64,000 nt of DNA, from positions 57,395 to 121,394 of the forward strand of contig JBEKPS010000004.1 of the NCBI GenBank assembly GCA_049520515.1. Direction: 5' to 3'. This DNA comes from Vulcanimicrobiaceae bacterium (GTDB taxonomy: Bacteria; Vulcanimicrobiota; Vulcanimicrobiia; Vulcanimicrobiales; Vulcanimicrobiaceae). A program made the translations under genes and the position numbers. This document shows positions 407-64,000 of this stretch, piece by piece; position 1 is the first letter of the stretch; every line of letters starts with the position of its first letter. The notes under the pieces are model-generated. The model saw only the letters and a program-made list of their open reading frames with translations, searched no databases and was not told the DNA's origin.

Positions 407-442
407 AATCCTTACTCCACGCGGAGATAACAGGCTCCGCAA

Positions 443-475: not shown

Positions 476-485
476 CCTCCCGAGG

Positions 486-5353: not shown

Positions 5354-5389
5354 AGAGTTTCTATGCTAACACATCGCGAAAGACAGAAT

Positions 5390-7381: not shown

Positions 7382-7432
7382 GGTCGTTTCGAGTTCCCAG
7401 GGCCGTAATCAACACCCTCCGAAAATTGTAAA

Positions 7433-11766: not shown

Positions 11767-11807
11767 TCGGCGGGCTTCGCGGCGCGCGCTGCGAACACTC
11801 CGCGGCG

Positions 11808-17272: not shown

Positions 17273-17302
17273 CGCCTCCGTAGCTCGGGAAATTGCGACG
17301 GC

Positions 17303-18448
17303 ATGTCGCGTTTGGTGACCCTTGTCATCGACTCGGGAGGTATCGGCGCTCTGCCGGATGCTGCGTCGTACGGTGATTCCAACACGGCGAACACAATCGG
17401 TAACGTCGCGTCTCACGTTGGAGGATTGCGCCTCCCGACATTGGAGCGTTTGGGTCTCGGCGATCTGACGAACATTCGCGGTGTTGATGCCGTTTCTCAC
17501 CCCGAGGCGGCGGTCGCTCGACTTCGTGAACGCTCCCGCGGCAAAGATACGATCACCGGTCATTGGGAAATGGCCGGAATCATTACGGAAGTTCCATTCC
17601 CAACGTATCCCGATGGCTTCCCTCCAGATGTCATCGAAGAATTCACCGCGATTACCGGCAAGCAGCCACTTGGAAACAAGCCGGCCTCAGGAACAGAAAT
17701 TATTGCGGAGCTCGGTGACGAGCACGTTGCGAGCGGACGTCCGATCTTGTACACGTCTGCCGACTCCGTGTTTCAAGTCGCCGCACATGAAGAAGTTGTG
17801 CCGCTTGCCGTTTTGTATGACTGGTGCGAACGCGCTCGCGCAATGCTCTTACCGCCGAATAACGTCAACCGCGTTATCGCGCGCCCTTTCGTAGGTACCA
17901 GCGGGAAATATGCCCGCACGCCAAATCGTCGCGACTATGCAATCGAGCCTCCGCCGAGCGTCTTAGACGATCTTGCAGGCGCCGGCATTCCCGTTCACGC
18001 GGTCGGAAAGATCTGCGATATCTATACCGGTCACGGAATCACAAGCTCCGTGCGCGTCGTTGATAACGATGATGCGATGAATCAAACAGAACGGCTGTTG
18101 CGCGATCTCGAGCACGGCCTCGTGTTCACAAACTTGAACGACTTCGACAGCAAGTACGGACACCGGCGTGACGTTCGCGGATATGCGAGCGCCCTCGAGC
18201 AGCTCGACGTGCGTTTGGCAGAATTATTACCGCATCTTCGGCCCGGTGACGGGTTGGTCATCACGGCCGATCATGGTTGCGATCCAACCGCGCCTGGAAC
18301 GGACCACACGCGTGAGTATGTACCGTACATCGAACTGGGTACCGCAGCCGGCGGTGACCTTGGGACGATCGAGGGCCTGGATCAGATTGGGAAGCGATTA
18401 ACGTCGCTCTTTCTCTCGAAGAAGGTCGCCGGGAGCAGCAGAAGGTAA
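17303..18448 (+). CDS. deoB: Phosphopentomutase
   Basis: I set the start at ATG17303 (MSRLVTLVIDSGGIGALPDA). Motifs: GKDTITGHWEMAG, LYTSADSVFQVAAHEE, FTNLNDFDSKYGHRRD, ITADHGCDPT. Confidence 0.92.
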   Translation: MSRLVTLVIDSGGIGALPDAASYGDSNTANTIGNVASHVGGLRLPTLERLGLGDLTNIRGVDAVSHPEAAVARLRERSRGKDTITGHWEMAGIITEVPFPTYPDGFPPDVIEEFTAITGKQPLGNKPASGTEIIAELGDEHVASGRPILYTSADSVFQVAAHEEVVPLAVLYDWCERARAMLLPPNNVNRVIARPFVGTSGKYARTPNRRDYAIEPPPSVLDDLAGAGIPVHAVGKICDIYTGHGITSSVRVVDNDDAMNQTERLLRDLEHGLVFTNLNDFDSKYGHRRDVRGYASALEQLDVRLAELLPHLRPGDGLVITADHGCDPTAPGTDHTREYVPYIELGTAAGGDLGTIEGLDQIGKRLTSLFLSKKVAGSSRR

Positions 18449-18462
18449 CGCCTCGTACGGCC

Positions 18463-19128
18463 GTGATCGAAAGTCTACCAGCGCCCCCTATCCACCAAGA
18501 GCTCTCGAAAAGCCGGCCCGTCCCGCATTGGTGGTGGGGCCTAAAACGTGTAACCGATATCGTCGTGGCGTTGACGGCGTTAATTGTGACGTTGCCGATT
18601 TCAATCGTTGCAGCCGTTGCAATCGTTCTCGTTTCTCCCGGCTCGCCGCTATTTTTACAGACGCGAGTCGGGCGTGACGGGCGCATGTTTCGCATGTTGA
18701 AGTTTCGCACGATGGATGCCGGCGCGCACCTGCTTCACGACGATATGCGTCCGCTGAACGAAGTCGACGGCCCCGTGCTGAAGATTCGTAACGACCCGCG
18801 CTTGCACGCGCTCGGTGCGATTCTGCGGCGCACGAGTATCGACGAGCTGCCGAATTTCGTGAACGTCTTGCTGGGAGAGATGAGCGTCGTCGGACCGCGC
18901 CCGCCTCTACCATCCGAGGTCGAGCACTACGACGCCCGAGCCCTGCGGCGTCTCACCGTGAAGCCCGGCGTGACGTGCCTGTGGCAGATCAACGGCCGCT
19001 CGACGGTGAGCTTCGATCGGTGGATGGAACTCGACAATCTGTACATCGATACGTGGACGCCAGTCGATGATTTGAAGATCATCATCGGAACGATCCCGGC
19101 GGTCGTTCGAGGCAACGGAGCGCACTAA
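18463..19128 (+). CDS. Polyprenyl-phosphate sugar-phosphate transferase (bacterial sugar transferase, WbaP/EpsL type)
   Basis: 221 aa. One N-terminal TM, then [55 protein letters not shown] start. Confidence 0.92.
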
Positions 19129-49820: not shown

Positions 49821-50359
49821 CAGGCCGACTCACTGCGCGCGAGACGCGAGATGACGCGCGGCGCAAAGAATGCCAGCGCGATCAACAGCACGTCGACACC
49901 GAGTACGAGGGCGACGATGCTCGCAATTCCTGTCGAGCCGATTCCGGCTGCGACGGCGCGACCGACGTCGTAGAATGCACGCGAGCTGTGATCGAGCAGA
50001 CCGAGTGCGAGCGAAAACACTCCGTGCGCGTCGGGACGACCGATTGCAAACCACGTTCCGATCCCAAGCCACGATGCTAACAGATAGAATCCGGCCGCCG
50101 ACCATAGCGGGAGGCGCGGCGCAGCCGGTTTCGGCGGCGGCAGCGTGCGAATCTCGGCCATCGTCTTCTGCGTGAAGTTCGGAGCCGGCTCGAGCAGACG
50201 CGGCGTGAGCAGCAACGCGTCGATGACGCGCAGCTCTTCGAGCACTGAGGTGCAGCGCGCGCACTGTGCGAGATGTGTCTCGACGTTATGGCGCTGCAGC
50301 ACGCTGAGCGTGCCGTCGAGCAAACCGTCAAAAAGATTCTCAGACGCGGTGCAATGCAT
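49820..50359 (-). CDS. Anti-sigma factor (zf-HC2 type)
   Basis: 179 aa. The N-terminal H-x3-C-x2-C motif (HLAQCARC) is typical of zf-HC2 anti-sigma domains. TM segments follow. Located directly downstream of the ECF sigma gene. Confidence 0.8.
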   Translation of the reverse strand: MHCTASENLFDGLLDGTLSVLQRHNVETHLAQCARCTSVLEELRVIDALLLTPRLLEPAPNFTQKTMAEIRTLPPPKPAAPRLPLWSAAGFYLLASWLGIGTWFAIGRPDAHGVFSLALGLLDHSSRAFYDVGRAVAAGIGSTGIASIVALVLGVDVLLIALAFFAPRVISRLARSESA

Positions 50360-50960
50360 ACTTCATACTCAAGGCGCGAAAGCTGCTGGCTTCCGTCTCC
50401 GTCTGGCGGAGTTTGTGGGCGAGTGCGAGCTTACCGCGGTGAATCAATGTCTTGACGTTGCCAAGCGAGAGCCCCATCGTCTGCGCGATCGTCTGATAAT
50501 CCATGTTGTCGTAGTAGCGCAAGGCGAGGACGGTGCGCGTGCGTTCGGGCAGCTGCGCGAGTGCGGCGCGAACTTCGGCCTCGGCTTCCGAGCGGAGAAC
50601 GCCGCCGGCTGGATCGGCTTCTATTGAGAGATCGGGAAGCGTGTTTTCGAGTGTCTGTTCTTCGGCGAGCTCTTGTGTCGCCGGACGGCGCTGGGCTTTC
50701 CCGAGATGCGTGCGCACGACGTTGCGCGCGATGTGATAGATCCACGTCGAAAACTTTCCGAGCTGTGGGTTGAACGTGCCGAGGTGCGCGTAGGCGCGCA
50801 TGAACGTTTCCTGCGAGAGATCGGCGACGTCCGATTGGGAGCGGACGCTCGCGCCGATGAAATTAGCGATCCCGCGTTTGTACCGCTCAACCAGAACGGC
50901 GAATTGTTCGTGGTCTCCGGCAAGGACGTTTCGGACGAGGGCTTCATCGCGCGGTCCCAT
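50340..50960 (-). CDS. ECF-family RNA polymerase sigma factor
   Basis: I set the start at ATG50960 (MGPRDEALVRNVLAGDHEQFAVLVERY). Region 2 reads DLSQETFMRAY..FSTWIYHIARN; region 4 reads ALRYYDNMDYQTIAQTMGLSLGNVKTLIHRGK. Confidence 0.9.
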   Translation of the reverse strand: MGPRDEALVRNVLAGDHEQFAVLVERYKRGIANFIGASVRSQSDVADLSQETFMRAYAHLGTFNPQLGKFSTWIYHIARNVVRTHLGKAQRRPATQELAEEQTLENTLPDLSIEADPAGGVLRSEAEAEVRAALAQLPERTRTVLALRYYDNMDYQTIAQTMGLSLGNVKTLIHRGKLALAHKLRQTETEASSFRALSMKYALHRV

Positions 50961-51005
50961 GGCTTTCACCGGGAGATACTGCCGGAAGAGGGCAAGGTTT
51001 CGCGG

Positions 51006-52481
51006 ATGCAGCTCGAGCTCGATTGGGACGCCGTCGCGGAGTGCCGTGACCTGGCGGGGCGGATCGTTGACCCGGTGGCCGCGTTCATCGGGGCTCATTC
51101 GACCGTCTCCGTTGAGCGGGCGATCGCTCGCTTACTCGGCGCGGCGGGTGCGGGCGAAGATGGAGTCCCCGTTGCCAACACCGTCGTCGACGCGCTCGGC
51201 CCGCGGCTACCGCACGGAGTGGCGAGTGCGATGGCTGCGGATCTGGGCCGGTCCGAGATCGAGCGGCGCGCGCACGCGGGGCTCGCCAAGATCGAAGCTC
51301 GGCGTCGCGAACGCGACGCGTTCCTCGAGCGATTGCCGCAAGGCGTGCCGCCGCTGCTCTACGTTATCGTGGCCAGCGGCAACATCTATGAAGACCGCAT
51401 CGCAGCGGTCGCGGCAGCGGAGGCCGGCGCGCAGATCATCGCGGTGATCCGCTCGACGGGGCAGTCGTTGCTTGATTTCGTTCCGGAAGGCGCAACGACC
51501 GAAGGCTTCGGCGGCACGTACGCAACGCAAGAAAATTTTCGCATCATGCGTGAGGCGCTCGATGAAGGCGGGGAACGGCTCGGGCGTTACGTGATGCTCA
51601 CGAACTACGCGAGCGGATTGTGCATGCCCGAGATTGCGGCGCTTGCGGCACTCGAGCGCCTCGACATGCTGCTCAACGATTCGATGTACGGGATTCTCTT
51701 CCGCGACATCAACATGCGGCGCACGTTCGTGGATCAACATTTCTCGCGAATGCTCAATGCGCACGCCGGGATCATCATCAACACCGGCGAGGACAACTAC
51801 CTCACGACGGCGGATGCCGTGGAACAAGCTCCGTCGGTCTTGGCGTCGCAGTTCATCAACGAAGAGTTCGCGCATCGGGCCGGCATGCCGGACAAGCAGC
51901 TCGGCCTTGGCGACGCATTCGAGATCGATCCGGATTTGGAGGACGGGTTTCTTTTCCAGCTCGCCCAAGCGCAGTTGACGCGCCAGATCTTCCCGGACGC
52001 GCCGCTGAAATACATGCCGCCCACCAAGCACATGACCGGAGATGTCTTCAAAGGTCACCTGATGGACGGGATGTTCGATCTCGCGTCGGTGATGACGCAT
52101 CAGACGATTCATCTGTGCGGAATGCTGACGGAAGCGATACACACGCCGTTGCTCGGCGATCGTGCGCTCTCTATTGAAGGCGCTCGTTACGTGATGGGCA
52201 CGGCGCGCCATCTCGGTGATGAGCTCGAGATCAAGCCCGGCGGCGTGATCGAGCATCGCGCGCGTCACGTGCTCGACTCCGCGCGCACGCGCTTGCGTGA
52301 GGTCGCCGAAATCGGACTCGAAGCCGCAATCCAAGCTCGCGTTTTCGCCGACGTCTCACGCACGCCAACCGGCGGCCGCGGCTACGAGGGCGTCTTCGAA
52401 AAAGCTGATGATTATTGGAATCCGTTTGAAGAAGCGCTTCTGCGTAGAATGGGCCCCTTAATAGACGCACATTCTGCGTAG
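51006..52481 (+). CDS. kamD: D-lysine 5,6-aminomutase alpha subunit
   Basis: I set the start at ATG51006 (MQLELDWDAV..HSTVSVERAIARLLG). LLYVIVASGNIYEDRIAAVAAAEAGAQIIAVIRSTGQSLLDFVPEGATTEGFGGTYATQENFRIMREALD, GEDNYLTTADA and LKYMPPTKHMTGD are collinear with clostridial KamD as I remember it. Confidence 0.9.
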   Translation: MQLELDWDAVAECRDLAGRIVDPVAAFIGAHSTVSVERAIARLLGAAGAGEDGVPVANTVVDALGPRLPHGVASAMAADLGRSEIERRAHAGLAKIEARRRERDAFLERLPQGVPPLLYVIVASGNIYEDRIAAVAAAEAGAQIIAVIRSTGQSLLDFVPEGATTEGFGGTYATQENFRIMREALDEGGERLGRYVMLTNYASGLCMPEIAALAALERLDMLLNDSMYGILFRDINMRRTFVDQHFSRMLNAHAGIIINTGEDNYLTTADAVEQAPSVLASQFINEEFAHRAGMPDKQLGLGDAFEIDPDLEDGFLFQLAQAQLTRQIFPDAPLKYMPPTKHMTGDVFKGHLMDGMFDLASVMTHQTIHLCGMLTEAIHTPLLGDRALSIEGARYVMGTARHLGDELEIKPGGVIEHRARHVLDSARTRLREVAEIGLEAAIQARVFADVSRTPTGGRGYEGVFEKADDYWNPFEEALLRRMGPLIDAHSA

Positions 52482-52484
52482 AAT
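52438..52484. repeat. Perfect 13-bp direct repeat TTCTGCGTAGAAT (52438-52450 and 52472-52484)
   Basis: Read directly from the sequence. The second copy contains the kamD stop codon. The two copies are in different reading frames (offset 34 nt). Confidence 0.9.
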
Positions 52485-52509
52485 AATTGGCATCCGCGGA
52501 GAATAGTGG

Positions 52510-52537
52510 TATAATATACGCAAATCATGCGTATATT
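52510..52537 (+). promoter_or_regulatory. Candidate -10 box plus 10-bp inverted-repeat operator overlapping the fic start codon
   Basis: TATAAT at 52510-52515. AATATACGCA (52513-52522) and TGCGTATATT (52528-52537) are perfect reverse complements with a 5-nt spacer. The fic ATG is at 52527. This is an AT-rich patch in a GC-rich genome. Confidence 0.3.
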
Positions 52538-53639
52538 GCCGCCGCGTTATATTCACGAGCGCCCAGAATGGCCGCATTTCCGCCTGGATTCAGAACGGCT
52601 GGCTGGGCACCTAGCAAGCGTCCGGCATTTGCAAGGACGCTTGCTTGGTCGAATGACGGGGCTTGGCTTCACTCTCCAAGCTGAGGCTACCGTCCAAAGC
52701 CTAACCGAGGAGGTGCTCAAATCCAGCGAGATCGAGGGCGAGAAGCTTAACAGGGATCAGGTGCGATCGTCCATTGCGCGGCGTCTCGGCGTGGACATCG
52801 GCGCCTTGACTCCGGCCGACCGAAACGTCGAGGGTGTCGTTGAGATGATGCTCGACGCTACGCAGCGGTATGGCGAGCCCCTGACGGAGGCGCGGCTATA
52901 TGGCTGGCATGCGGCCTTGTTCCCTACCGGATACAGCGGGATGCACAAGATAACGGTAGGCGCATGGCGCACAGATGCGGCTGGTCCAATGCGAGTGGTA
53001 TCCGGACCATTTGGCGCAGAACGGGTCCACTACGAGGCGCCTTCTGCGGACCGCATCGATGAGGAGATGCGCTCCTTTTTGCGATGGCTCAATGGCAGCG
53101 CCGATATGGATCTCGTTCTGAAGGCCGGCGTTGCTCATCTATGGTTCGTGACAATTCATCCATTTGAAGACGGCAACGGGCGAATTGCGCGCGCGATCGC
53201 GGATCTTTTGCTGGCTAGATCGGAGCAAATTTCACAGCGATTTTATAGCATGTCAGCGCAAATACGTAAGGAACGTGACGAGTACTATAACCTACTTGAA
53301 GCAACGCAAAAGGGTGATCTTGATATCACGTCCTGGCTCAATTGGTTCCTTGACTGCCTCGGACGCGCATTCGAAGGAGCAGAGGCAGAACTGAAAGACG
53401 TTCTGTCAAAGGCGCGTTTTTGGGAAGCTCACCGCGACGCATCGTTAAACGAACGGCAACGAACCATGGTTAACAAGTTACTCGACGGATTCCAGGGTAA
53501 ACTGACATCCACGAAATGGGCGAAAATTACGAAATCCTCTCACGACACCGCGCTGCGAGACATTGAAGCGCTCGTGGCAAAGGGAATTCTTAAGAAAGAT
53601 CCAGGAGGCGGTAGAAGCACGAGCTATTCGCTGTGCTAG
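52527..53639 (+). CDS. Fic-family protein (DUF4172-type N-terminus, intramolecular inhibitory helix, C-terminal wHTH-like region)
   Basis: 370 aa. Fic active-site motif HPFEDGNGRIAR. N-terminal [S/T]xxxE[G/N] inhibitory motif SSEIEG. Visibly lower GC than its neighbours. Confidence 0.93.
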   Translation: MRILPPRYIHERPEWPHFRLDSERLAGHLASVRHLQGRLLGRMTGLGFTLQAEATVQSLTEEVLKSSEIEGEKLNRDQVRSSIARRLGVDIGALTPADRNVEGVVEMMLDATQRYGEPLTEARLYGWHAALFPTGYSGMHKITVGAWRTDAAGPMRVVSGPFGAERVHYEAPSADRIDEEMRSFLRWLNGSADMDLVLKAGVAHLWFVTIHPFEDGNGRIARAIADLLLARSEQISQRFYSMSAQIRKERDEYYNLLEATQKGDLDITSWLNWFLDCLGRAFEGAEAELKDVLSKARFWEAHRDASLNERQRTMVNKLLDGFQGKLTSTKWAKITKSSHDTALRDIEALVAKGILKKDPGGGRSTSYSLC

Positions 53640-54361
53640 TCAGACCTTACGGCGACACAAAAGATGACGGCGTAGTACAGCTGTCGTTCACGTTGCCGCT
53701 CGAATGGAGTGAGGCGGCCGATGAAGCGGCGCGACGGCTTGTCGCGCAGATGGGCTTCACGGATGTTGCGGTAGCAGAAGGCCGCGAGATCGCGCGCGGA
53801 TTTTCGTTCTTCGTCGTGTACGCGCGCACCAAAGTCTCAGTTGAAGTCGACAACATCGCGGCTGCAATTCCCCACGAACGGCCGCTTGCAATGGAAGAAG
53901 TCGATGGACTCTTGCGCGAGCGCTTCGGGCGCAAAGTTCGCGTCGCCGGCGCGTGCATCGGTACCGATGCGCACACGGTCGGGATCGACGCAATCCTTAA
54001 CATGAAGGGCTGGAAAGGCGACTACGGCCTCGAGCGTTATGCGATGTTCGACACCCTGAATTTGGGCGCGCAGGTTGCGGTCGAGGATCTGGTGAGCATT
54101 GCGCGCGAGCGCGATCTCGACGTCATACTCGCCTCGCAAGTCGTCACGCAAAAAGGGAGCGACGTCCTCAATTTCACGGCGCTTGCCGAACGGCTCGAAG
54201 AAGCGGGTTTGCGCGATCGCATTCTGCTCTTGTGCGGTGGCCCGCGCGTGACGAATCTGCTCGCGGCAGAGCTCGGTTACGACGCCGGCTTCGGCCGCGG
54301 CACGCTGCCCAGCGAAGTGGCGACGTTCATTGCTCGCCGCTTGATCGAGCGCGCCGCGTGA
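53633..54361 (+). CDS. kamE: D-lysine 5,6-aminomutase beta (B12-binding) subunit
   Basis: 242 aa. RPYGDTKDDGVVQLSFTLP, B12-binding DxHxxG motif GTDAHTVGIDAILNMKG, LLCGGPRV..ELGYDAGFG. The GTG start lies 4 nt before the fic stop. Confidence 0.9.
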   Translation: MLVRPYGDTKDDGVVQLSFTLPLEWSEAADEAARRLVAQMGFTDVAVAEGREIARGFSFFVVYARTKVSVEVDNIAAAIPHERPLAMEEVDGLLRERFGRKVRVAGACIGTDAHTVGIDAILNMKGWKGDYGLERYAMFDTLNLGAQVAVEDLVSIARERDLDVILASQVVTQKGSDVLNFTALAERLEEAGLRDRILLLCGGPRVTNLLAAELGYDAGFGRGTLPSEVATFIARRLIERAA

Positions 54362-55563
54362 TCGCGCTGCTCGCGTTCTTGCTCGCCACGCTTCCGTGGA
54401 CGCCCGCGCAGGTCAGCAAGCTGCATGCGGACGTCGATCGCATGTTGATGTCGGCCAAGACGCTGCGCGGCGCGCACGTCGGCTTTCTCGCGGTCGACAC
54501 GCGCAGCGGTCGCGTGCTCTACGAGCACAAAGCCGACGACGCGTTTATGCCGGCCAGCACGCTCAAAGTGATCACGGGCTCGACCGCGTTGGCGACGCTC
54601 GGACCGAACTTCGCGTTCACGACGCAAGTTGCGACGCTCACCGACGGGACGACGACGAAGCTCGTGCTCATCGGCGGCGGCGATGCGCTGTTGAATGCCA
54701 ACGATCTCGACGACGCGGCCGCGGCCGTCGCTGCAGCAAACGTTGGGCCAATTTCCGAAATTGACGCCGACACGAGCCGTTTCGATCAAGAGCGCTACGG
54801 TTACGGCTGGACGCTCGACGACATCGGTGAAGCGTACGCCCCGGCGATAACGGCGCTCTGTTATCAAGACAATGTTGTTGGCCACGAACCGCGCGCCGAT
54901 CCCGAGCACGTTGCGCTTGCGATACTGGCACGCGATCTGCGCACGCGCGGCGTCTCGTTGCCCGACGTGATTCCGAGCGACGTTTTTGTGCGGCCTCCGG
55001 AGAGCGCGTATCACGTCCTATGGACGCACCAATCGAAACCGCTCGCGCAATACCTGGCATCGATGTGGTATCCGAGCGACAACCTCATCGCCGAGATGCT
55101 GATCAAGTCGATCGCCGTTGCAACGCATGGTACGCCCGGCACTGCCGGCAACGGCGCCGCGCGCGAAGAGCGTTGGCTGCGTTCGATCGGCATCGATCCC
55201 GCGCGCAACACGGCAATCTTCGATGGCTCCGGCGTCTCGATCTACGATCGGCTCTCGCCGCGCACGCTCGTGCGCGTCTTTCAAATCGATTGGCGCAGCG
55301 CCAATCGCGAAGCGATTCTGGCTGCGTTGCCGCTTGCCGGCGTGCGCGGAACGATTCGCAACTCATTCGCAGGGACGCCCGCACGTGGCCGCACCTACGC
55401 AAAGGACGGCAATCGTCTCTTCGCAAGCTCGCTCTCAGGCTATCTGATGCCGCTGCACCACGGTACGATTACCTTTGCATTCATGGTCGACGATTGGACC
55501 GGCGACGACGACGATCTCGACCGTTTCGAAGGCAAGCTGCTCTCGCGTTTCGTCACCAAGTAG
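54358..55563 (+). CDS. dacB: D-alanyl-D-alanine carboxypeptidase/endopeptidase (PBP4, peptidase S13)
   Basis: I chose GTG54358, which overlaps the kamE stop (GTGA) and gives the signal-like VIALLAFLLATLPWTPAQ. Motifs: FMPASTLKV (SxxK), DGSGVS, LSGYL. Confidence 0.8.
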   Translation: MIALLAFLLATLPWTPAQVSKLHADVDRMLMSAKTLRGAHVGFLAVDTRSGRVLYEHKADDAFMPASTLKVITGSTALATLGPNFAFTTQVATLTDGTTTKLVLIGGGDALLNANDLDDAAAAVAAANVGPISEIDADTSRFDQERYGYGWTLDDIGEAYAPAITALCYQDNVVGHEPRADPEHVALAILARDLRTRGVSLPDVIPSDVFVRPPESAYHVLWTHQSKPLAQYLASMWYPSDNLIAEMLIKSIAVATHGTPGTAGNGAAREERWLRSIGIDPARNTAIFDGSGVSIYDRLSPRTLVRVFQIDWRSANREAILAALPLAGVRGTIRNSFAGTPARGRTYAKDGNRLFASSLSGYLMPLHHGTITFAFMVDDWTGDDDDLDRFEGKLLSRFVTK

Positions 55564-56366
55564 ATGCCGGGCGAACGTTTTGAACGCGAGATTCGCGAGC
55601 AGCCCGCCGTGTGGCGCCGGATTGCCGAATCCTCAAAGGCGCAAGAGCTAGCGCGCGCGATCGGCAACGGCCCCGTGTGTCTGGTCGGAAGCGGCAGCTC
55701 GCTCTTCGTCGCGCAGCTCGGTGCGCTCGCGTTGCGCCGGCGTGGGATCGTGGCAAGCGCGCTGGCAGCGACGGAAGCGCGCTTCGATCGAGAAACGTAT
55801 CGCAACGGCTGCGTGATCGCGCTTTCGCAAAGCGGACGCTCGAGCGATGTGCTCGCTGCGCTGCGGCGACGCTGTGCGAAACTGCGGACGACGTTTCGAG
55901 CTGGTTCGCGAGCGACGGTTGGCGCGAAGCGGACGAATCGGCGCAGTCTCTGGCGCGCTCTCGTGCGGTGGCGATTGTCGGTGCCGGTTACAGCGTTCCG
56001 ATTGCTTACGAGCTGGCGCTGAAGATGAAGGAAGCCAGCTACGTGCACGCCGAGGGATTTCCGGCGGGTGAGTTCCGTCACGGCAGCTCCGCTATTCTTG
56101 ACAAATCCAGCACCCTGATCGGAATCCTCGACGAAACCTCGCGCGACATTGTCGAGCGTCCGATGCGCGAGGCCGAAGCCGCCGGAGCGCTGCGCTTCGT
56201 GATCGGCGCGAAGCTCGGCGAGCTTCCGCTGCTGGGTCCGCAGACCGGCGAAGCGTTCAACACGCTCGCGTGGCTGGTCACCGGACAGGCGCTGGCGCTC
56301 TTCACCGGGCGTGCCGCTGGTGTTGACAGCGACGCCCCACGCGGGCTGACCAAATTCCTCGCGTGA
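55564..56366 (+). pseudogene. SIS-domain sugar isomerase/aminotransferase-like gene, frameshifted and apparently internally shortened
   Basis: Frame 1 (55564-~55865) reads MPGERFEREIREQPAVW..VCLVGSGSSLFVAQ..IALSQSGRSSDVLAAL and then degenerates. A second frame continues TLCETADDVSSWFAS..AVAIVGAGYSVPIAYELALKMKEASYVHAEGFPAGEFRHGS.. to a stop at 56366. The total of ~267 codons compares with ~340 expected for two-SIS proteins. Confidence 0.5.
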
Positions 56367-56409
56367 GCGGCGCAGGGCTGAGTGCCGTGCCTTCCAGAAT
56401 CGCACGGTA

Positions 56410-57087
56410 ATGCCACTTCCCGAGCTGCTGGCGTGGTTTACCGGCAAAGAGGTTAACCGCCGGAAATTTCCGCGTAAGAAAAAGGGCTATCGCGCGACCT
56501 ATACGATGGACGGCGGGCAGACGATGCATCCTGCGATCGGCATCGACATTAGCGGCGGCGGAATGTGCTTCCTGACGCAAACCGACGTCGAGCAGCCGGA
56601 ATTCGAAGTGCGCGCGACGCTCGATCAACGCACCGTGCGCATGCGCGTCAGGCCGGTTTGGAAAGACAAGGTCACACACGCGGGCAAAGCGGTGACGCGC
56701 TTCGGCGTTCGTTACTCTGGAATTCCAGCCGACGATTGGGACGCGGTGATGCGCTACTCGACGGACAAACCCGCCGAGGACGTCAACAAGGCGCAAGAAG
56801 AGCTCGTCGCGGTCAAGATGACCGAGGACGACGCGCAGCGTCTGATTCCGTTGGTACTGCAGCGCAAACTACTCGACATGCTCGTGTCGCGCAACCGGCT
56901 CGCGAAGCCCGACGGTAAGTCGACGCCGCTCGTGCAGTTCTTTTACTCGGGCCTCGTTCGTTATCAGAACAAGCCGATGCATCGCTTGACGATCCAATCG
57001 AAGATCGTCCGCGACGACGGGACCGACATGTACGAGACGCGGTTTCTGTTCGATGAGACCGGCGAAAACGTCTTGATGATGAATTGA
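56410..57087 (+). CDS. PilZ-domain (c-di-GMP-binding) protein with uncharacterised C-terminal domain
   Basis: 225 aa. RxxxR motif (RKFPR) and D-x-S-x-x-G motif (DISGGG) with the spacing typical of PilZ domains. Confidence 0.8.
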
Positions 57088-58061
57088 TGCCGAAGACCGC
57101 TCTCATCACCGGCATCACCGGCCAGGACGGATCGTACCTGGCCGAATTTCTGTTAGAGCAAGGCTATCGTGTCATCGGCATGACGCGCCGCTCGAGCACC
57201 GATGTGCACGAACGGATCGAGCACATCGTCGATCGCATCGAGATCGTCTCGGGCGATCTACTCGATCAAAGCTCGATTACGTCAATCGTTGCGGCGACGC
57301 GTCCCGACGATATCTACAACCTCGCGGCGCAGTCGTTCGTCCCGACTTCGTGGACGCAGCCCGTGCTCACCGGCGAGTTCACGGCGCTGGGCGTCACGCG
57401 TGTCCTCGAAGCAATTCGCTCGGTCGATACGAAGATTCGCTTCTATCAGGCTTCGAGCTCCGAGATGTTCGGCAAAGTCCGCGAGGTTCCGCAAACCGAG
57501 GACACGCCGTTCTATCCGCGCAGCCCGTACGGCGTCGCTAAAGTGTACGGGCACTACATCACGGTCAACTATCGCGAGAGCTACGACATCTTCGCAGTGA
57601 GCGGGATATGCTTCAATCATGAATCGCCACGGCGTGGGCGTGAGTTCGTCACGCGCAAGATCAGCGACGGAGTTGCGCGCATCAAGCTTGGTCTCGCGAA
57701 GGAATTGCGGCTTGGGAATCTCGACGCAAAGCGCGACTGGGGCTATGCACTTGATTACGTGCGCGGGATGTGGATGATGCTCCAGCACAATACGCCGGAA
57801 GACTTCGTGCTTGCCACGGGCCGGACGCACACGGTCAAAGAGTTCGTGCGCCTGGCGTTCGAGTGCGTCGATCTGAATTGGGAGAAGTACGTCGTTGTCG
57901 ATCCGCGCTTCTATCGCCCCGCCGAGGTCGACATGTTGGTCGGAGATCCAGCGAAGGCAAAGCGTCTGCTCGGATGGGAGCCTGAAGTTTCGTTCGAGCA
58001 GCTTGCCGAGATGATGGTTCGCGCGGATGTTGAGCGTTTGCGTCCGCTGGCAACGGTCTGA
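57087..58061 (+). CDS. gmd: GDP-mannose 4,6-dehydratase
   Basis: [70 protein letters not shown]57087 overlaps the PilZ stop (TGATG); TTG57084 is an alternative. Confidence 0.95.
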
Positions 58062-58106
58062 TGATGACCGCTGTCCCTCGACTTCGCTCGGGATGACAAG
58101 CGAAAG

Positions 58107-59027
58107 ATGCAAATACTTGTAACGGGCGGGAGTGGTTTTGTCGGGCGGCGATTGGTTGCTGCGTTACGCGAACGCGGCGATGACGTCGTTTCGGCCGCGC
58201 CCTCGCAAGGCGACGATCAACATCTTCCGCTCGATCTAACCGATTCCGATAACGTTCGCGCCGTCGTCGAGATGGTGCAGCCTGATGTCGTCTACCATCT
58301 CGCCGCGCAGTCGTTCGTTCCGGCCTCGATCGAAGATCCGCTCACGACGTATCGTGTGAACGTCGACGGTACCGCGTTTCTGCTCGAGGCGTTACGAGAG
58401 CTCAAACCACGGCTGCTGTTCGTGAGCTCCGCTGAAGTCTACGGACGCCGGCCGCAAGAGGATATGCCGCTGCGCGAAACGCTGCCGCCGCGCCCAGCCA
58501 ATCCGTATGCTGCATCGAAGGCGGCGGGAGAAGCGCTCGTGCTCGGTTGGCATCACGCCTACGGCATTGATGCGGTTATCTCGCGCGCCTTCAATCACAT
58601 CGGCGCGGGACAAGATCATCGATTTGCGGTGCCCGCCTTCGCGCAGCGCTTGGCGCGCATCGCGGGCGGTCAAGAAGGCGTGCTCAACGTCGGCAACGTC
58701 GAGAGCGAGCGCGATTTTCTCGACGTGCGCGACGTCGTCGCCGCGTACATCGCGCTTGCGGATCGCGGCGTGGGCGGTGAGATCTACAACGTGTGCAGTG
58801 GACAGGCCGTCAAGATGCGCGAGGTGTTGCGCCGGCTCGTCAACATTGCCGGTGTTCCGGTTGAGATCCGCGAGGATCCCGAGCTGATGCGTGCGAGCGG
58901 CGAAGTGTTGCGTTCGGTCGGTGATCCCAGCAAACTCAAGCGCACGACCGGATGGTCGCCGCGCATCAGCCTTGCGGATTCGCTACGCGAAGTCTACGAG
59001 GAAGCGCGCGCCGAAGTCCCCGCGTAA
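58107..59027 (+). CDS. rmd: GDP-4-dehydro-6-deoxy-D-mannose reductase-like (GDP-D-rhamnose-forming)
   Basis: 306 aa. [61 protein letters not shown] and YNVCSG are collinear with Pseudomonas Rmd as I remember it. It does not look like the Fcl/WcaG N-terminus. Confidence 0.75.
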   Translation: MQILVTGGSGFVGRRLVAALRERGDDVVSAAPSQGDDQHLPLDLTDSDNVRAVVEMVQPDVVYHLAAQSFVPASIEDPLTTYRVNVDGTAFLLEALRELKPRLLFVSSAEVYGRRPQEDMPLRETLPPRPANPYAASKAAGEALVLGWHHAYGIDAVISRAFNHIGAGQDHRFAVPAFAQRLARIAGGQEGVLNVGNVESERDFLDVRDVVAAYIALADRGVGGEIYNVCSGQAVKMREVLRRLVNIAGVPVEIREDPELMRASGEVLRSVGDPSKLKRTTGWSPRISLADSLREVYEEARAEVPA

Positions 59028-59611
59028 TGGGCGTTCGTGCCATCGTCTTCAAGAATCGCGGCGCGTTGCTCGCGATTCCGGCACTGATTCTGGTGATTTT
59101 CGGAAAGCCGGGCGGAGCATCGATCTTCTCGGGCTTAGGGCTCGCATTCTTAGGTGAAGCGATTCGCTGCTGGGCGGTTGGCTATTCAGGTACGACGACA
59201 CGCGCCGACCACGTCGTCGCGCCGCAGCTCGTCACTGCCGGCCCGTACGCCTACATGCGCAACCCGTTGTACGTAGGAAACTTTATCACCGCGCTGGGCT
59301 TTGCGCTTGCGTTCACAGGGAACAATCCGCCCACCGAACGATTGATACTCATAGGAGCTAGCTTGGCCGTTATGCTTGCCGTCTACGCGACGATCGTGCC
59401 GCACGAAGAGAGCTTTCTCCGCGCGACCTTCGGCGCGAGCTACGATGAGTATATGTTGCGCGTCCCGCGCGTGTGGCCGCGTCAGCCGAAGCTCTCGGCT
59501 GCGCAGCTTGGAACGTACGATGCAAGCGTGATCGGACGGGCTGAAACACGCACGTTCGTATTCTTCAGCCTCATGCTGGTAGTTCTCGCGCTCAAGGCCT
59601 TCGTGCTTTGA
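59027..59611 (+). CDS. ICMT/PEMT-family membrane methyltransferase
   Basis: ATG59027 overlaps the rmd stop (TAATG). 4-5 TM segments. LVTAGPYAYMRNPLYVGNF is typical of the isoprenylcysteine carboxyl methyltransferase-like family. Confidence 0.8.
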   Translation: MGVRAIVFKNRGALLAIPALILVIFGKPGGASIFSGLGLAFLGEAIRCWAVGYSGTTTRADHVVAPQLVTAGPYAYMRNPLYVGNFITALGFALAFTGNNPPTERLILIGASLAVMLAVYATIVPHEESFLRATFGASYDEYMLRVPRVWPRQPKLSAAQLGTYDASVIGRAETRTFVFFSLMLVVLALKAFVL

Positions 59612-60483
59612 CGCTGCGTGTAGCGTTCTTCGCGACCATGCTGATCGCGGCGATCGAATGCGCCGGCGGCTTTGTCGCGCATTCGCTCGCGTTGCTTACG
59701 GATAGCGCGCACGTCTTCTTGGATGCGGTTGCACTCTTGATCGCGCTCGCGGCGATGCACCTCGCCTCTCGCCCCGCGACGCGGCGGCAGACCTTTGGGT
59801 TCGGACGCACTGAGATTCTCGCAGCCTTGCTCAACGGTGGCCTGCTGTTCGCGGTCACCGCGTTCATCGTTGTCGAAGCGGTGCGGCGTTTCATCCATCC
59901 AGTCGCGCCTGACGGCCCATTGATGGCGGCGTTCGCGGCGTTTGCGCTCGTCGTGAACGGGGCGCTCAGCGTCCTGCTCGCGCGCAAGACGCACGAGAGT
60001 CTCAACATGCGCGCGGCGCTGATGCATGTGATTAGCGACGCGCTTTCGTCGCTTGGCGTCATTGTCGGTGCGCTCGTCATTTGGCGATTCGGCTGGGTGT
60101 GGATCGATCCGCTGCTCTCGATTGCAATTGCAGCGGTGATCGTGGTCGGCGTCGTGCGTATCATCCTCGAAGCCAGCGACGTGTTGCTCGAAAGCGTCCC
60201 GGCGCACGTCAACGTCGAGCGCGTCCAAGAACGCATTCGCCTCGTCGAAGGCATCGTCGGCGTACACGATCTGCACGTCTGGACGCTGGGGACCGGTAAC
60301 TACGCCCTTTCCGCGCACGTCTTATTGCCCGATCGCAGCATCAGCGATGCGACCCACATCTTGCAAAGCGTCGACCGTGCGATGCGCGATGAATTCGCGA
60401 TCTCGCACGTCACCGTGCAGTTCGAGTGTCAATCGTGCGCGGCCGACGAGCGGATCGTCTGCACCCAGCTGCAGCCAAAATAA
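59608..60483 (+). CDS. Cation diffusion facilitator (CzcD/ZitB-type) metal efflux transporter
   Basis: 291 aa. HSLALLTDSAHVFLDAV, FGFGRTEILAAL, HVISDALSSLGV, and a C-terminal cytoplasmic domain with HDLHVW. The TTG start overlaps the previous stop (TTGA). Confidence 0.92.
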   Translation: MTLRVAFFATMLIAAIECAGGFVAHSLALLTDSAHVFLDAVALLIALAAMHLASRPATRRQTFGFGRTEILAALLNGGLLFAVTAFIVVEAVRRFIHPVAPDGPLMAAFAAFALVVNGALSVLLARKTHESLNMRAALMHVISDALSSLGVIVGALVIWRFGWVWIDPLLSIAIAAVIVVGVVRIILEASDVLLESVPAHVNVERVQERIRLVEGIVGVHDLHVWTLGTGNYALSAHVLLPDRSISDATHILQSVDRAMRDEFAISHVTVQFECQSCAADERIVCTQLQPK

Positions 60484-60505
60484 TCGCTCCGGTGTCATCG
60501 GGAGC

Positions 60506-61858
60506 ATGAATGGAAAAGCCGTAGTCCTTGCCGCAACGCGCACGCCGTTCGGTCGCCTGGGTGGTGCCCTTTCGTCGCTTGCCGCGACCACGCTTGGAGC
60601 CGAAGCGATCCGCGGGGCGCTCGAGCGGGCCAAAGTCGATCGCGCCGACGTCGACCACGTCATCATGGGACAGGTCTTGCAAGGCGGGGCCGGGCAAGCG
60701 CCCGCGCGTCAAGCTTCCTATAAAGCGGGGCTTGCCAAGACCGTGACGAGCGAGACCCTGAACAAGGTCTGCGCCTCCGGCATGCTCGCCGTCGCGGCCG
60801 CCGCCCGGTTGATCGATAGCGGCGACTACCGCCTGATCGTCGCCGGCGGGATGGAATCGATGTCGAATGCGCCCTACGCGCTTCCCGGTGCGCGCAGCGG
60901 CTATCGCTTCGGCGACGGCAAGCTCGTCGATCTCATGATCCACGATGGCCTCTGGGACTTTTTCTTCGATGTGACGATGGCGTCGCAAGGCGCGAAGGTC
61001 GCAGCCGAGCTTGGCCTCACGCGCGAGATGCAAGATGAATTCGCGTACCAGAGCCACCTGCGCGCAACACAGGCGCAGGCAGCCGGACACTTCGCCGCCG
61101 AGATCGTGCCGATCCGCGTGGCGACAAAGCAGAAGGGCAAGATCGTCGTCGAGCAGGTACCAACGCGCGTTCCGGCTCGCGTTCCGGTAATGGCGGGCGG
61201 GAACGGCAGCTCGAATGTGTGGTCGCACGTGCCGCCCGATACGATGGTCCCCGATCCGCAAAAATATTCGCCGTATCTCGATGCGCACGCGCATGGTGAG
61301 ATTCCGTCGACGCTCGTCGATCGCGATGAAGCAGTGCGCACCGACGCCAGCATGGCCGCGATGGCAAAGCTCCCCCCGATCGACAAAGATGGAAGCGTGA
61401 CTGCGGGCAACGCGCCCGGCGTCAACGACGGCGCGGCTGCGCTCGTGCTCGCCGATCCGGCGTACGCGAAGAGTCATTTCGGCGCAGAAGTGCTTGCCAC
61501 GATCGTCGATCACGCGACGGCCGCGTGGGATCCGCCGTATCTTGCGCTCACGCCCGCGATGGCGATCCAAAAATTGCTCGACCAACAAGGTCTCTCGCGT
61601 AACGACATCGCGGTCTGGGAGATCAACGAAGCATTCTCCGCCGTCGTGCTCAGCTCGTCACAGCGCTTGGGCCTCGGTTCGGACAAAGTGAATCTGCAAG
61701 GCGGCGCGGTTGCGATGGGTCATCCGATCGGCGCATCCGGTGCGCGCATCGTCGGAACAGTCATTCACCAATTGCGGCGGCGCGGCGGCGGACTCGGAAT
61801 CGCTGCGATCTGCAGCGGCGGCGGCCAAGGCGACGCAATCCTAATTCGGGTAGACTAA
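60506..61858 (+). CDS. Acetyl-CoA C-acetyltransferase (thiolase II) with a ~53-aa insertion
   Basis: I chose ATG60506 (MNGKAVVLAATRTPFG), preceded by GGGAG. Motifs: NKVCASGM (active-site Cys), GGMESMS, VTAGNAPGVNDGAAA, NEAFSA, GGAVAMGHPIGASGAR, CSGGGQG. The track start at 60347 is a spurious extension. Confidence 0.92.
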   Translation: MNGKAVVLAATRTPFGRLGGALSSLAATTLGAEAIRGALERAKVDRADVDHVIMGQVLQGGAGQAPARQASYKAGLAKTVTSETLNKVCASGMLAVAAAARLIDSGDYRLIVAGGMESMSNAPYALPGARSGYRFGDGKLVDLMIHDGLWDFFFDVTMASQGAKVAAELGLTREMQDEFAYQSHLRATQAQAAGHFAAEIVPIRVATKQKGKIVVEQVPTRVPARVPVMAGGNGSSNVWSHVPPDTMVPDPQKYSPYLDAHAHGEIPSTLVDRDEAVRTDASMAAMAKLPPIDKDGSVTAGNAPGVNDGAAALVLADPAYAKSHFGAEVLATIVDHATAAWDPPYLALTPAMAIQKLLDQQGLSRNDIAVWEINEAFSAVVLSSSQRLGLGSDKVNLQGGAVAMGHPIGASGARIVGTVIHQLRRRGGGLGIAAICSGGGQGDAILIRVD

Positions 61859-61861
61859 CCT

Positions 61862-62098
61862 CAGCGGCACGCTTCGCGGGCCGAGCCGCCACAGCACAAG
61901 CATTTGTGACTTGCTCTCCATCGTATCGGAGCGCTACGCTCAGGATGACGCGGTTACGATGACAAAAAGTAGGGAGATCGCGCTCTCTCTAGCGTACCTT
62001 GGGCATATCGTGAGCAAGCAACAAATGCAACTGCTGTGGAGGGCTCGGCCCGACAATCGCGCCGCTGCTGATGGCACGGCCCGCGAAGCGAGCCGCTG
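61862..62098. repeat. ~237-nt imperfect long inverted repeat (rod-like hairpin) filling the thiolase-hbd intergenic region
   Basis: Three nested arm pairs. (1) CAGCGGCACGCTTCGCGGGCCG (61862-61883) pairs with 62077-62098, 21 of 22 positions. (2) 61878-61896 pairs with 62032-62051, 10+8 bp with one bulge. (3) 61900-61916 pairs with 62012-62028, 15 of 17. Confidence 0.7.
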
Positions 62099-62104
62099 AA
62101 TATT

Positions 62105-62980
62105 ATGCGAATCTTAGTTATAGGCGCGGGGCAGATGGGTTCCGGGATTGCGCAAGTCTGCGCGCAAGCCGGACACGAAGTGCTGCTCAACGATCGCGAA
62201 GAGAAATTCGTCGAGCACGGCATTCGCTCGATCGAGAAGAATCTGGATCGCGCGGTTGAGAAAGGCCGGATGACGGCCGAAGAGCGCGGACGCGTTCTCT
62301 CGCATATCGATCCGCGACTGCACTTCACGAACCTCGATGTCGCAATCGCGATCGAAGCCGCTACCGAAAACCTCCATCTCAAGCTCGAGATTTTCCGCAA
62401 GCTGAACGAATCGACGGCGCCCGAGACAATCCTCGCGAGCAACACGTCGTCGATCTCGATCACGAAGCTGGCCGCCGTCTGCGACAATCCGGGACGCGTG
62501 ATCGGCATGCACTTCATGAATCCCGTTCCGGTCATGAAGCTCGTCGAAGTCATTCGCGCGATTCAAACGACGGATGCGACCGCGAAATTCGTCCACGATC
62601 TGGCGGCTCAACTCGGCAAGACGACCGCAGAGTCGCGCGACATGCCCGGCTTCATTGCAAATCGCATTTTGATGCCGCTGATCAATGAAGCGGTCTTTGC
62701 GCTATTCCAAGGCGTCGGTACGCCCGATGCAATCGATACGGTCGCAAAGCTCGGTCTCAATCATCCGATGGGGCCGCTCGAGCTCGCCGATTTGATTGGT
62801 CTGGATACGTGCCTCGCCATTATGGAAGTCTTGTACGACGGACTGGGCGATCAGAAGTACAATCCGTGCGCGCTGCTGCGGCAATACGTCGATGCGGGCT
62901 GGTACGGCCGCAAGACGGGCCGCGGTTTCTACACGTACGAGAACGGCCGCAAGGTCAGCGCTGAGGCGGTACCCGCATAG
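62105..62980 (+). CDS. hbd: 3-hydroxybutyryl-CoA dehydrogenase
   Basis: 291 aa. MRILVIGAGQMGSGIAQV, EAATENLHLK, ASNTSSISIT, GMHFMNPVPVMKLVE, PGFIANRILMP, GPLELADLIGLD. Confidence 0.93.
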   Translation: MRILVIGAGQMGSGIAQVCAQAGHEVLLNDREEKFVEHGIRSIEKNLDRAVEKGRMTAEERGRVLSHIDPRLHFTNLDVAIAIEAATENLHLKLEIFRKLNESTAPETILASNTSSISITKLAAVCDNPGRVIGMHFMNPVPVMKLVEVIRAIQTTDATAKFVHDLAAQLGKTTAESRDMPGFIANRILMPLINEAVFALFQGVGTPDAIDTVAKLGLNHPMGPLELADLIGLDTCLAIMEVLYDGLGDQKYNPCALLRQYVDAGWYGRKTGRGFYTYENGRKVSAEAVPA

Positions 62981-64000
62981 CACAATTCGAGCTCACCGAC
63001 GACCAGCGTGCGATCCAGCAGCTGGCCGCAGAGTTTGCAAAGCGTGAGATCGCGCCGCACATTGCGGAATGGGATCGCTCGCAGACCTTTCCGCGCGCGC
63101 TGTTTACGAAAATGACGGAAGCCGGGCTGATGGGCATCATCATTCCGGAAGAATACGGCGGCGTCGGTGCGGACTACGTGAGCTATGCGTTGGCCGTCGA
63201 GCAGATCGCGAAGGTCGACGCCGGTTCAGCCGTGACGCTTTCCGTGCACGCGATGATTTGTTCGGCGATTCTTCGCCTCGGCACGGATGCACAGAAGAAG
63301 AAATATTTACCGATGCTCGCGAGCGGCGATGCAATCGCCGCGTTTGCGCTCACCGAGCCTGAGGCCGGCTCCGATGCCGCGGCGTTGCGCGCGACTGCGC
63401 GGCGCGAGGGCGACAGTTTCGTTTTGAACGGCCGCAAGCAGTGGTGCTCGAACGGCGGCGAGTCCGCCGTCATCATGGGCATGTTTCGCACCGGCGGCGC
63501 AGGCGTGCGCGGCATCTCGGCCTTTTTGATCGATCATCCCTCGAAGGGAATGGTGATCGAGAACCTCTCGAACAAGCTCGGCATTCACACCAGCAACACA
63601 TGCGACATCGCCTTCGACGACGTGCACGTTCCCGCGAGTGCGCTACTCGCCGCCGAAGGCGAAGGCTTACGCAGCGCGCTAAGCACGTTGACGTCGGGAC
63701 GCATCGGGATCGCGTCGCAAGCCTGCGGCATTCTCGGCGCATGTCTCGACGCATCGATTCAGTTTGCGAAAGATCGTGAGGCTTTCGGCAAACCGATCGC
63801 AGCGTTCGAAGCGATCTCGTTCAAGATCGCGCGCATGGCTGCGGATCTCAACGCTGCACAGCTGTCCACATATCGCGCGGCCGCGCTATGCGATGCGGGC
63901 AAACCCTTCGCGGTCGAAGCCAGTATGGCGAAACTCTTCGCCTCGACGAAAGCGCGCGAACATGCATCCGAAGCCGTGCAAATACACGGCGGCTACGGAT
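62977..64000 (+). CDS. Acyl-CoA (butyryl-CoA-type) dehydrogenase, 3' end outside the window, start codon unclear
   Basis: Not in the ORF track. Manual translation gives ..AQFELTDDQRAIQQLAAEFAKREIAPHIAEWDRSQTFP..GGVGADYVSYALAVEQIAK..FALTEPEAGSDAA..WCSNGG..GRIGIASQACG..REAFGKPI..QIHGGYG. There is no ATG/GTG/TTG between the in-frame stop at 62962-62964 and the conserved N-terminus. ATA62977 is listed only as a placeholder start. Confidence 0.85.
   Translation, partial: MAQFELTDDQRAIQQLAAEFAKREIAPHIAEWDRSQTFPRALFTKMTEAGLMGIIIPEEYGGVGADYVSYALAVEQIAKVDAGSAVTLSVHAMICSAILRLGTDAQKKKYLPMLASGDAIAAFALTEPEAGSDAAALRATARREGDSFVLNGRKQWCSNGGESAVIMGMFRTGGAGVRGISAFLIDHPSKGMVIENLSNKLGIHTSNTCDIAFDDVHVPASALLAAEGEGLRSALSTLTSGRIGIASQACGILGACLDASIQFAKDREAFGKPIAAFEAISFKIARMAADLNAAQLSTYRAAALCDAGKPFAVEASMAKLFASTKAREHASEAVQIHGGYG

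Follow-up and report, generated by a model that had tools for sequence, protein, structure and literature searches.

Within a 64,000-nucleotide stretch (the window) of a 417-kb contig from a Baltobacteraceae-like metagenome-assembled genome (MAG) of the Eremiobacterota (WPS-2/Vulcanimicrobiota), the genes for the two subunits of lysine 5,6-aminomutase (5,6-LAM) are parted by a gene for a Fic protein. The three open reading frames (ORFs) follow one another on the forward strand in the order kamD, fic, kamE at 51006-54361. kamD (51006..52481) codes for an alpha subunit of 491 aa (Pfam PF09043, Lys-AminoMut_A, 731 bits), fic (52527..53639) for a class II Fic AMP-transferase of 370 aa with the Pfam domains DUF4172 and Fic, and kamE (53633..54361) for a beta subunit of 242 aa with the Pfam domains PF16554 (OAM_dimer) and PF02310 (B12-binding). 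The domains expected of the enzyme from its solved structures (PDB 1xrs, 8t0v and 9q1a) are all present, namely a TIM-barrel in the alpha subunit and a dimerisation domain followed by a Rossmann B12-binding domain in the beta subunit. KamE aligns with PDB 1xrs_B (E 7e-74) through DAHTVG...NMK; the former motif, at nt 53966-53983, is the DxHxxG cobalamin motif, and the pyridoxal phosphate (PLP)-binding lysine of the latter (Lys144 in Clostridium sticklandii KamE) is kept in GTDAHTVGIDAILNMK, which aligns with GTDAHTVGIDAIMNMK (1xrs_B residues 129-144). An earlier interpretation made from the nucleotide sequence and its translations (the sequence-only reading) had already given this gene order, the ORF coordinates and the Fic and B12 motifs, and all of these agree with the ORFs, Pfam matches and motif positions. 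Identical kamD-fic-kamE junctions occur in three further independent assemblies from other samples (L085-L087), with fic 99% identical; an assembly chimera is ruled out by the same junctions in four independent assemblies together with the synteny of a sister species.

The Fic protein matches DUF4172 with an E-value of 2.3e-32 and Fic with an E-value of 1.9e-17. It combines the inhibitory motif SSEIEG (aa 66-71, nt 52722-52739) with the active-site motif HPFEDGNGRIAR (aa 211-222, nt 53157-53192), which has the form HxFx(D/E)GN(G/K)RxxR. The closest solved structure is CbFic2 of Coxiella burnetii (CBU_0822; PDB 8CIL, chain 8cil_A, E 5e-107, residues 8-369), whose TSAIEG aligns to the inhibitory motif. 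Its winged helix-turn-helix (wHTH, aa 304-362 according to its authors) aligns to the C-terminal region of the window protein, which points to a DUF4172-wHTH architecture for the latter. The two proteins align over their whole length with the same order of DUF4172/(S/T)xxxE(G/N) inhibitory helix, Fic motif and wHTH. CbFic2 is a class II Fic in which the balance of AMPylase and deAMPylase activities is set by DNA-induced dimerisation (PMC10628234). It differs in being a candidate effector that acts on host histone H3, without a known specific DNA site, whereas the bacterium that carries the window's fic gene is free-living, in soil or peat, and the promoter of this gene contains two specific palindromes.

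The window protein is also recovered by the PADLOC model for SoFic (PDLC03963, E 1.3e-48, Fic residues 20-367 against positions 20-349 of the 361-position profile). Sofic is reported to be a toxic, defensive AMPylase of the abortive-infection type, and EcSofic is accompanied by a small downstream antitoxin, AS1 (PMC12249575). The fic gene resembles these single-gene anti-phage systems in its HMM match, domain family and stand-alone mobile nature; unlike EcSofic it lies outside a defence island and has no AS1-like gene, and its similarity to SoFic structures is weak and partial (E 4e-9). More than 8000 database proteins match it at E < 1e-30. Stand-alone relatives 77-80% identical to it lie in unrelated contexts, beside insertion sequence (IS) fragments or other toxin-like genes, and copies of about 70% identity are present on 458 plasmid records, chiefly alphaproteobacterial. 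No kam genes were found in the contexts of the stand-alone and plasmid homologues, and no Fic homologue was found in the phage collection. In all homologues the conserved core ends in ...RSTSYSL and is followed by a variable tail of 4-16 residues; in the window this tail consists of one Cys. From these affinities we infer that the protein is an auto-inhibited AMP-transferase and that its gene is an accessory one of the toxin or defence type.

KamD was scanned for in one genome per GTDB species, which yielded 80 other kamDE loci, about 47 from Eremiobacterota and 33 from other phyla; a Fic gene is near kamD in none of them (0/80). The sister-species loci L082 and L083 (the Baltobacteraceae MAG GCA_036489885.1 and a JGI assembly) do have fic between kamD and kamE. 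They share with the window the series sigma factor, anti-sigma factor, kamD, fic, kamE, S13 peptidase, SIS, PilZ and sugar epimerases, and their Fic (P0002) is the closest distinct Fic, at 84% identity. Its active-site and inhibitory motifs are both intact, the former identical to that of the window and the latter reading SNEIEG. A metagenome scan with the operator/start pattern described below brought up no new kamD-fic-kamE species, its matches being the known contig, a distant Fic (L099) and two irrelevant sequences.

Composition sets fic apart from its neighbours. Its GC content and GC content at third codon positions (GC3) are 0.555 and 0.590, against 0.629 and 0.754 in kamD and 0.619 and 0.716 in kamE; its GC3 and codon-fit index are the lowest among 21 neighbouring genes, and its 240-nt segments (the last one of 153 nt) range from 0.50 to 0.63 GC. 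The lower GC that the sequence-only reading had noted is real, and in the sister species too the GC3 of fic is 0.64 against 0.73-0.78 in the flanking genes. The absence of fic from all 80 other loci, its deviant composition, the plasmid copies and the stand-alone homologues support the proposal, made in the same reading, that fic was acquired horizontally and inserted between the two subunit genes. Recency of the insertion finds no such backing. By the Nei-Gojobori method, synonymous divergence (dS) between the window and the sister species is 0.81 for fic and 0.70, 0.76 and 0.75 for kamD, kamE and the S13 peptidase gene, with ratios of nonsynonymous to synonymous divergence (dN/dS) of 0.107 for fic and 0.084, 0.052 and 0.102 for the other three, respectively. 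Given that the dS of fic matches that of its neighbours and that its dN/dS is low, fic has co-diverged with them under purifying selection, and its insertion is older than the split of the two species and has been inherited vertically.

Comparison with the sister species also delimits the insert. In blastn the window matches L082 in three blocks: kamD up to 52433; a fic unit at 52435..53634 on the forward strand, made up of the regulatory region and the fic ORF to its ...RSTSYSL end (L082 5910-7108, 81.9% identity); and kamE from 53645. In the window the fic unit is directly flanked by kamD and kamE sequence, so that the left end of the unit encodes kamD codons 477-491 and the stop (52434-52481); in L082 it is separated from kamD by 728 bp and from the kamE block by about 435 bp. 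This padding (L082 5182-5909 and 7109-7545) consists of repeats resembling repetitive extragenic palindromes (REP) or miniature inverted-repeat transposable elements (MITE), with 30-nt tandem units built on a CTACGCTCGGGATGAC core, and repeats of 75 nt and 250 nt lie to the left as well as to the right of fic. The REP core and an adjoining 70-nt piece recur in intergenic DNA of the window, at 61934-62071 and 58082-58097. Because only these two recur elsewhere in the window, the padding is probably dispersed repeat DNA rather than duplicated native spacer.

As a separate observation on these repeats, the REP/MITE-like core CTACGCTC(A/G)GGATGAC forms 30-nt tandem arrays in L082, and REP-derived peptides (...SAQDDK...) make up the C-terminal tails of KamD in four other loci (L021, L023, L028 and L043). 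A 13-bp direct repeat, TTCTGCGTAGAAT, is present on the forward strand of the window in two copies, at 52438-52450 and 52472-52484, with the same pair in L082 as TGCGTAGAATAA and a similar repeat, TGCGTAGATAAT, in the distant L099 unit. It was considered as a target-site duplication and ruled out, given that in L082 both copies belong to the fic unit, at a distance of 728 bp from kamD, and that a similar repeat is found in L099.

The regulatory region of the fic unit contains a predicted sigma-70-type promoter on the forward strand (52487..52515), TTGGCA-17 nt-TATAAT, with 11/12 matches to the consensus and an extended -10 TG at 52507-52508. It is the sole strong sigma-70-like site returned by a promoter scan of 50300-55700, and the -10 TATAAT and TGn are kept in L082. 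The 11 nt between the -10 box and the fic ATG predict a near-leaderless mRNA starting a few nucleotides before the ATG. Around this promoter lie two palindromes, both putative operators. The distal one, ACGCAcattcTGCGT (52465..52479), ends in the T at 52479 that is the first base of the kamD stop TAG (52479-52481), and the proximal one, ACGCAaatcaTGCGT (52518..52532), reaches from the -10 box to codon 2 and holds the fic ATG. The pattern ACGCA-N5-TGCGT has only these two sites in the 64 kb, both upstream of or at the fic start, with 0.15 expected. The half-sites are identical in L082, with different spacers. Three stand-alone homologues (L088, L091 and L094) have the same two-palindrome layout with co-varying half-sites, CCGCA-N5-TGCGG, and a 52%-identical Fic of a low-GC organism (L099, 330-440) has TACGCA-N5-TGCGTA sites. 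The layout recurring in this Fic subfamily comprises a TATAAT -10 box and two palindromes, the proximal one placed between this box and the start codon and the distal one about 53 bp upstream; it is seen at 52438-52532 of the window, at 5910-6010 of L082 and upstream of fic in L088, L091, L094 and L099. Such conservation speaks for a function of these elements.

The co-variation of the half-sites suggests that the fic gene is autoregulated by the C-terminal wHTH of its own product. A Fic-wHTH toxin of Yersinia pseudotuberculosis, CccR, is described as repressing its own synthesis through palindromes in its promoter (PMC10628234). CccR shares with the window protein a Fic domain combined with DUF4172 and a wHTH, and palindromes in the promoter of its own gene. 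The conserved palindromes suggest DNA binding by the window Fic; by analogy, the latter may likewise repress its own promoter. We accordingly picture the insert as a putatively self-contained transcription unit, with its own promoter and operators.

The position of these sites raises the alternative that Fic has been domesticated as a regulator, with the wHTH bound at the palindromes gating transcription from kamD into kamE and the genes downstream, as a roadblock combined with a local promoter, and so uncoupling KamE and the S13 peptidase from KamD or adjusting their levels to it. In its favour, the last base of the distal operator is the first of the kamD stop, the promoter points towards kamE, kamE and the S13 gene follow with overlapping stop and start codons, and CccR offers a precedent for binding to promoter palindromes. 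The same operator layout is nevertheless present in stand-alone homologues, and is hence older than the insertion, and the full retention of the catalytic and inhibitory motifs suggests that selection maintains the enzymatic activity; we regard such domestication as unlikely.

At the other end of the insert, kamE and fic overlap by 7 nt on the forward strand (GTGCTAG, 53633..53639), the kamE GTG at 53633-53635 preceding the fic TAG at 53637-53639, and the overlap is the same in L085-L087. GTG 53633 is the sole available kamE start, given an in-frame TAG at 53612-53614, and the nearest GGAGG (53604-53608) lies 24 nt before it. Direct inspection bears out the GTG, the fic stop, the in-frame stop and the distant GGAGG as first reported. 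The sequence-only reading had further taken KamE to be about 20 residues too short, and concluded that fic had replaced the kamE 5' end. The shortness is real relative to clostridial KamE, residue 3 of the window protein aligning to residue 22 of 1xrs_B, but not relative to the same phylum: in 44 relatives from Eremiobacterota the KamE start precedes (L/I)VKPYGDT by 2-7 residues, nearly always by 2-4, and an N-terminus longer by 7-21 residues is a feature of Firmicutes, Bacteroidota, Fusobacteria and similar groups. The window's M-L-V-R-P-Y-G-D-T equals in length the M-N-V-R-P-Y-G-D-T of the sister species. Truncation of KamE by fic is therefore ruled out, the short N-terminus being native.

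Overlap with the upstream gene is native as well. In most of the Eremiobacterota relatives the kamD stop and the kamE start share 4 nt (ATGA/GTGA), the start codon being ATG, GTG or, occasionally, TTG, with weak motifs of the Shine-Dalgarno (SD) type at about half of the kamE starts. As in this native coupling, the window has a kamE start that overlaps the end of the preceding ORF, a weak or missing SD and a short N-terminus; it differs in that the preceding ORF is fic and in that 7 nt (GTGCTAG) are shared rather than 4 nt. Overlap-type coupling of kamE is native to the phylum, with fic having taken the place of kamD. The lack of an SD at kamE was correctly observed earlier. An SD-like motif lies 4-12 nt upstream of only 4/40 called genes (window ~1-18750 and 42530-63640; gene calls of L101 and L001), and translation of most genes in this genome appears to start independently of an SD. 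With so few SD motifs, the one missing at kamE is uninformative, and as evidence of obligatory coupling it is ruled out. As a candidate for an RNA structure that masks the kamE start, a small local hairpin covers the GTG, with a fold no better than those of shuffled sequences (z = -1.17). The kamE gene of the sister species starts at an ATG of its own, 407 nt downstream of the fic stop and without overlap; since the repeat arrays part fic and kamE there, the coupling is not conserved. Of the proposal that KamE synthesis depends on translation of fic, the overlap itself stands and the dependence is plausible in the window species only.

These comparisons bear on the possibility of a recent selfish insertion, or of an assembly chimera, in which the kamE N-terminus was truncated, its start orphaned and the aminomutase left to decay. 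The lower GC of fic, a KamE 20 residues shorter than its clostridial counterpart and a GTG start without an SD would all be expected of such an event. They are met by identical junctions in four independent assemblies, by a co-diverged sister species, by dN/dS values of 0.05-0.08 for kamD and kamE with intact B12 and PLP motifs, and by the native occurrence in the clade of short N-termini, of GTG starts and of genes without an SD, so that this possibility can be given hardly any credence.

Other kamDE loci show that fic is not the only passenger at this junction. A two-gene module, encoding a SLFN_AlbA_2/HATPase_c_4 protein and a ParA-like AAA_31 ATPase, lies between kamD and kamE in L012 (6453-8656), L016 (1688-3745), L102 (826-3029) and L104 (5001-7191). 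All three junctions of the module are ATGA overlaps in L012 and L016; its aa identity is 85% in L102 and 55-63% in L104, the latter locus having a window-like synteny (sigma-kamD...kamE-S13). The GC3 of the module is 0.62-0.65 against 0.85-0.90 in the flanks, and in a neighbour-joining tree of KamD the two module-bearing lineages are not sisters, their nearest relatives being without it. In L012 and L102 the module is flanked by a 12-bp repeat, (C)GTTACGCGC(A/G)TGA, that duplicates the overlap of the kamD stop and the kamE start (junction repeat TTACGCGC(A/G)TGA, at 6442-6456 and 8642-8656 in L012 and at ~815-829 and ~3015-3029 in L102). The ParA-like protein consequently ends in ...LRA*, as KamD does in ...EEALRA*. 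This repeat could mark the mechanism of insertion or permit precise excision. The same gene pair occurs stand-alone, with a 4-nt overlap, in Oscillatoria (L105) and in a Chloroflexi MAG (L106). In the latter (3533-6177) a HicB/HicA pair and the SLFN-ParA module are embedded among housekeeping genes that all run on one strand (prfA, prmC and sua5, then glycosyltransferases), which is possibly another case of accessory modules inserted in an operon-like array.

The presence of an unrelated module at the same junction favours a permissive slot over a Fic function specific to the aminomutase. The latter had been entertained in the sequence-only reading as post-translational control of the enzyme, for which no support was found: the regulatory unit of fic is shared with stand-alone homologues, and the slot is used by other genes. 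In its fuller form this explanation holds that Fic AMPylates KamD, KamE or a reactivation factor, its position ensuring co-expression. 5,6-LAM suffers suicide inactivation and its reactivation is ATP-dependent; fic has been kept at the site in two species under purifying selection and is physically coupled to kamE in the window. A precedent for the layout would be the clostridial glutamate mutase operon (mutS-mutL-mutE), in which the accessory gene mutL/glmL likewise sits between the genes for the B12-binding and catalytic subunits. MutL/GlmL is, however, conserved together with the enzyme that it serves as a dedicated chaperone or reactivase, whereas fic is a promiscuous mobile gene associated with kamDE in one small clade. 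No homology to reactivases or chaperones of the MutL/GlmL or MeaB type was detected in Fic, Pfam giving only DUF4172 and Fic and the PDB matches all being Fic proteins. Moreover, some 47 Eremiobacterota and 33 other-phyla kamDE pairs manage without fic, its closest relatives (72-80% identity) and the plasmid copies have no kam genes nearby, it retains a promoter/operator unit typical of stand-alone homologues, the overlap with kamE is lost in the sister species, and in other lineages the kamD/kamE junction is taken by the Schlafen-ATPase/ParA module. Functional coupling of this kind is very unlikely.

Together the above observations suggest that a mobile, autonomous class II Fic gene inserted at the kamD/kamE junction in an ancestor of at least two Baltobacteraceae species and has since been a tolerated passenger, with the enzyme genes left intact, and we consider this the likely history of the locus. 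The insertion would have taken place exactly at the overlap of the kamD stop and the kamE start, bringing a promoter and two palindromic operators with it. kamD would then read 15 codons into the insert and stop at the edge of the distal operator, while the fic stop would have replaced that of kamD as the partner of the kamE start. Fic would be made from a near-leaderless transcript and, like CccR, would act through the palindromes to repress its own promoter. KamE could be made by ribosomes that finish fic at its TAG and restart at the GTG 4 nt upstream, as they would natively after kamD, and kamE and the downstream S13 gene would be transcribed both from the fic promoter and by read-through from the kamD promoter. 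Fic itself would be an accessory AMP-transferase of the toxin or defence type rather than a dedicated partner of the aminomutase.

Several points weigh against this history. A small AS1-like antitoxin gene is absent downstream of fic, where kamE overlaps the fic stop, and the neighbourhood consists of housekeeping genes rather than a defence island. The fic-bearing species number only two, and an empty site in a close relative was not encountered. The edges of the insert are approximate, and with two species the ancestor may have been either compact, as in the window, or padded with repeats, as in L082. A role specific to this locus would likewise be compatible with long retention at one site and a GC3 that has stayed low, and the promoter, the operators, the coupling and AMPylation are all inferred.

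The Fic family is known, widespread and mobile; its placement within kamDE is unusual and apparently undescribed, no literature linking Fic with kamD/kamE having been found. It provides a natural example of a presumably self-regulated gene of the toxin or defence type long resident in an enzyme operon without damage, inserted so as to hijack the stop/start coupling that kamD and kamE already used, and the sister species shows that this coupling can later be lost. The tempting over-reading, control of a B12 enzyme by Fic, is thereby corrected, and what remains of most interest is that different mobile modules have repeatedly and seamlessly used one and the same stop/start overlap. Given the two kinds of passenger, the kamD|kamE junction seems to tolerate, and perhaps to attract, unrelated mobile modules. 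A bolder version, which we advance tentatively and rate as rather unlikely, is that the kamD-stop/kamE-start overlap of Eremiobacterota is a recurrent landing pad at which unrelated mobile accessory or defence-type modules are integrated seamlessly into an enzyme operon. Were this so, it would be an undescribed intra-operon hotspot with insertion and excision by way of the duplicated stop-start junction. As in variable accessory and defence hotspots, different modules (Fic; SLFN_AlbA_2/HATPase_c_4 with the ParA-like ATPase) lie between the same two conserved core genes; unlike in known hotspots, the slot is a single stop/start overlap in an enzyme operon, where overlapping stops and starts join the passengers to their neighbours without an integrase or a tRNA. 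More generally, accessory genes may find permissive, perhaps even preferred, sites in the stop-start overlaps of conserved operons, which bears on the spread of defence genes in uncultured phyla and on the annotation of operons in MAGs.

The wider surroundings of kamDE in Eremiobacterota are cell-envelope and nucleotide-sugar genes, in which kamDE forms a conserved isolated pair among extracytoplasmic function (ECF) sigma/anti-sigma, rhamnose (rml)/GDP-sugar, PilZ, PEMT and CDF genes (window 50340-55563; L013 3000-12500). The other lysine-fermentation genes, kamA, kdd, kce and kal, were not called in the annotated parts of the window (~1-18750 and 42530-63640). There are no Rfam matches in 50000-64000, and terminator matches between kamD, fic and kamE occur at background level only. 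A gene for a D-Ala-D-Ala carboxypeptidase (Pfam Peptidase_S13; 54358..55563, forward strand) follows, its start overlapping the kamE stop by 4 nt, an arrangement that is a feature of the window's lineage. Finally, the public call for kamD (565 aa) begins 222 nt upstream of ATG 51006, the extra segment (50784-51005) overlapping a divergent ECF sigma-factor gene. The alignment with the solved KamD chains 8t0v_A and 1xrs_A (E 1e-176) runs from residue 4, and supports 51006, rather than the public call, as the start of kamD.

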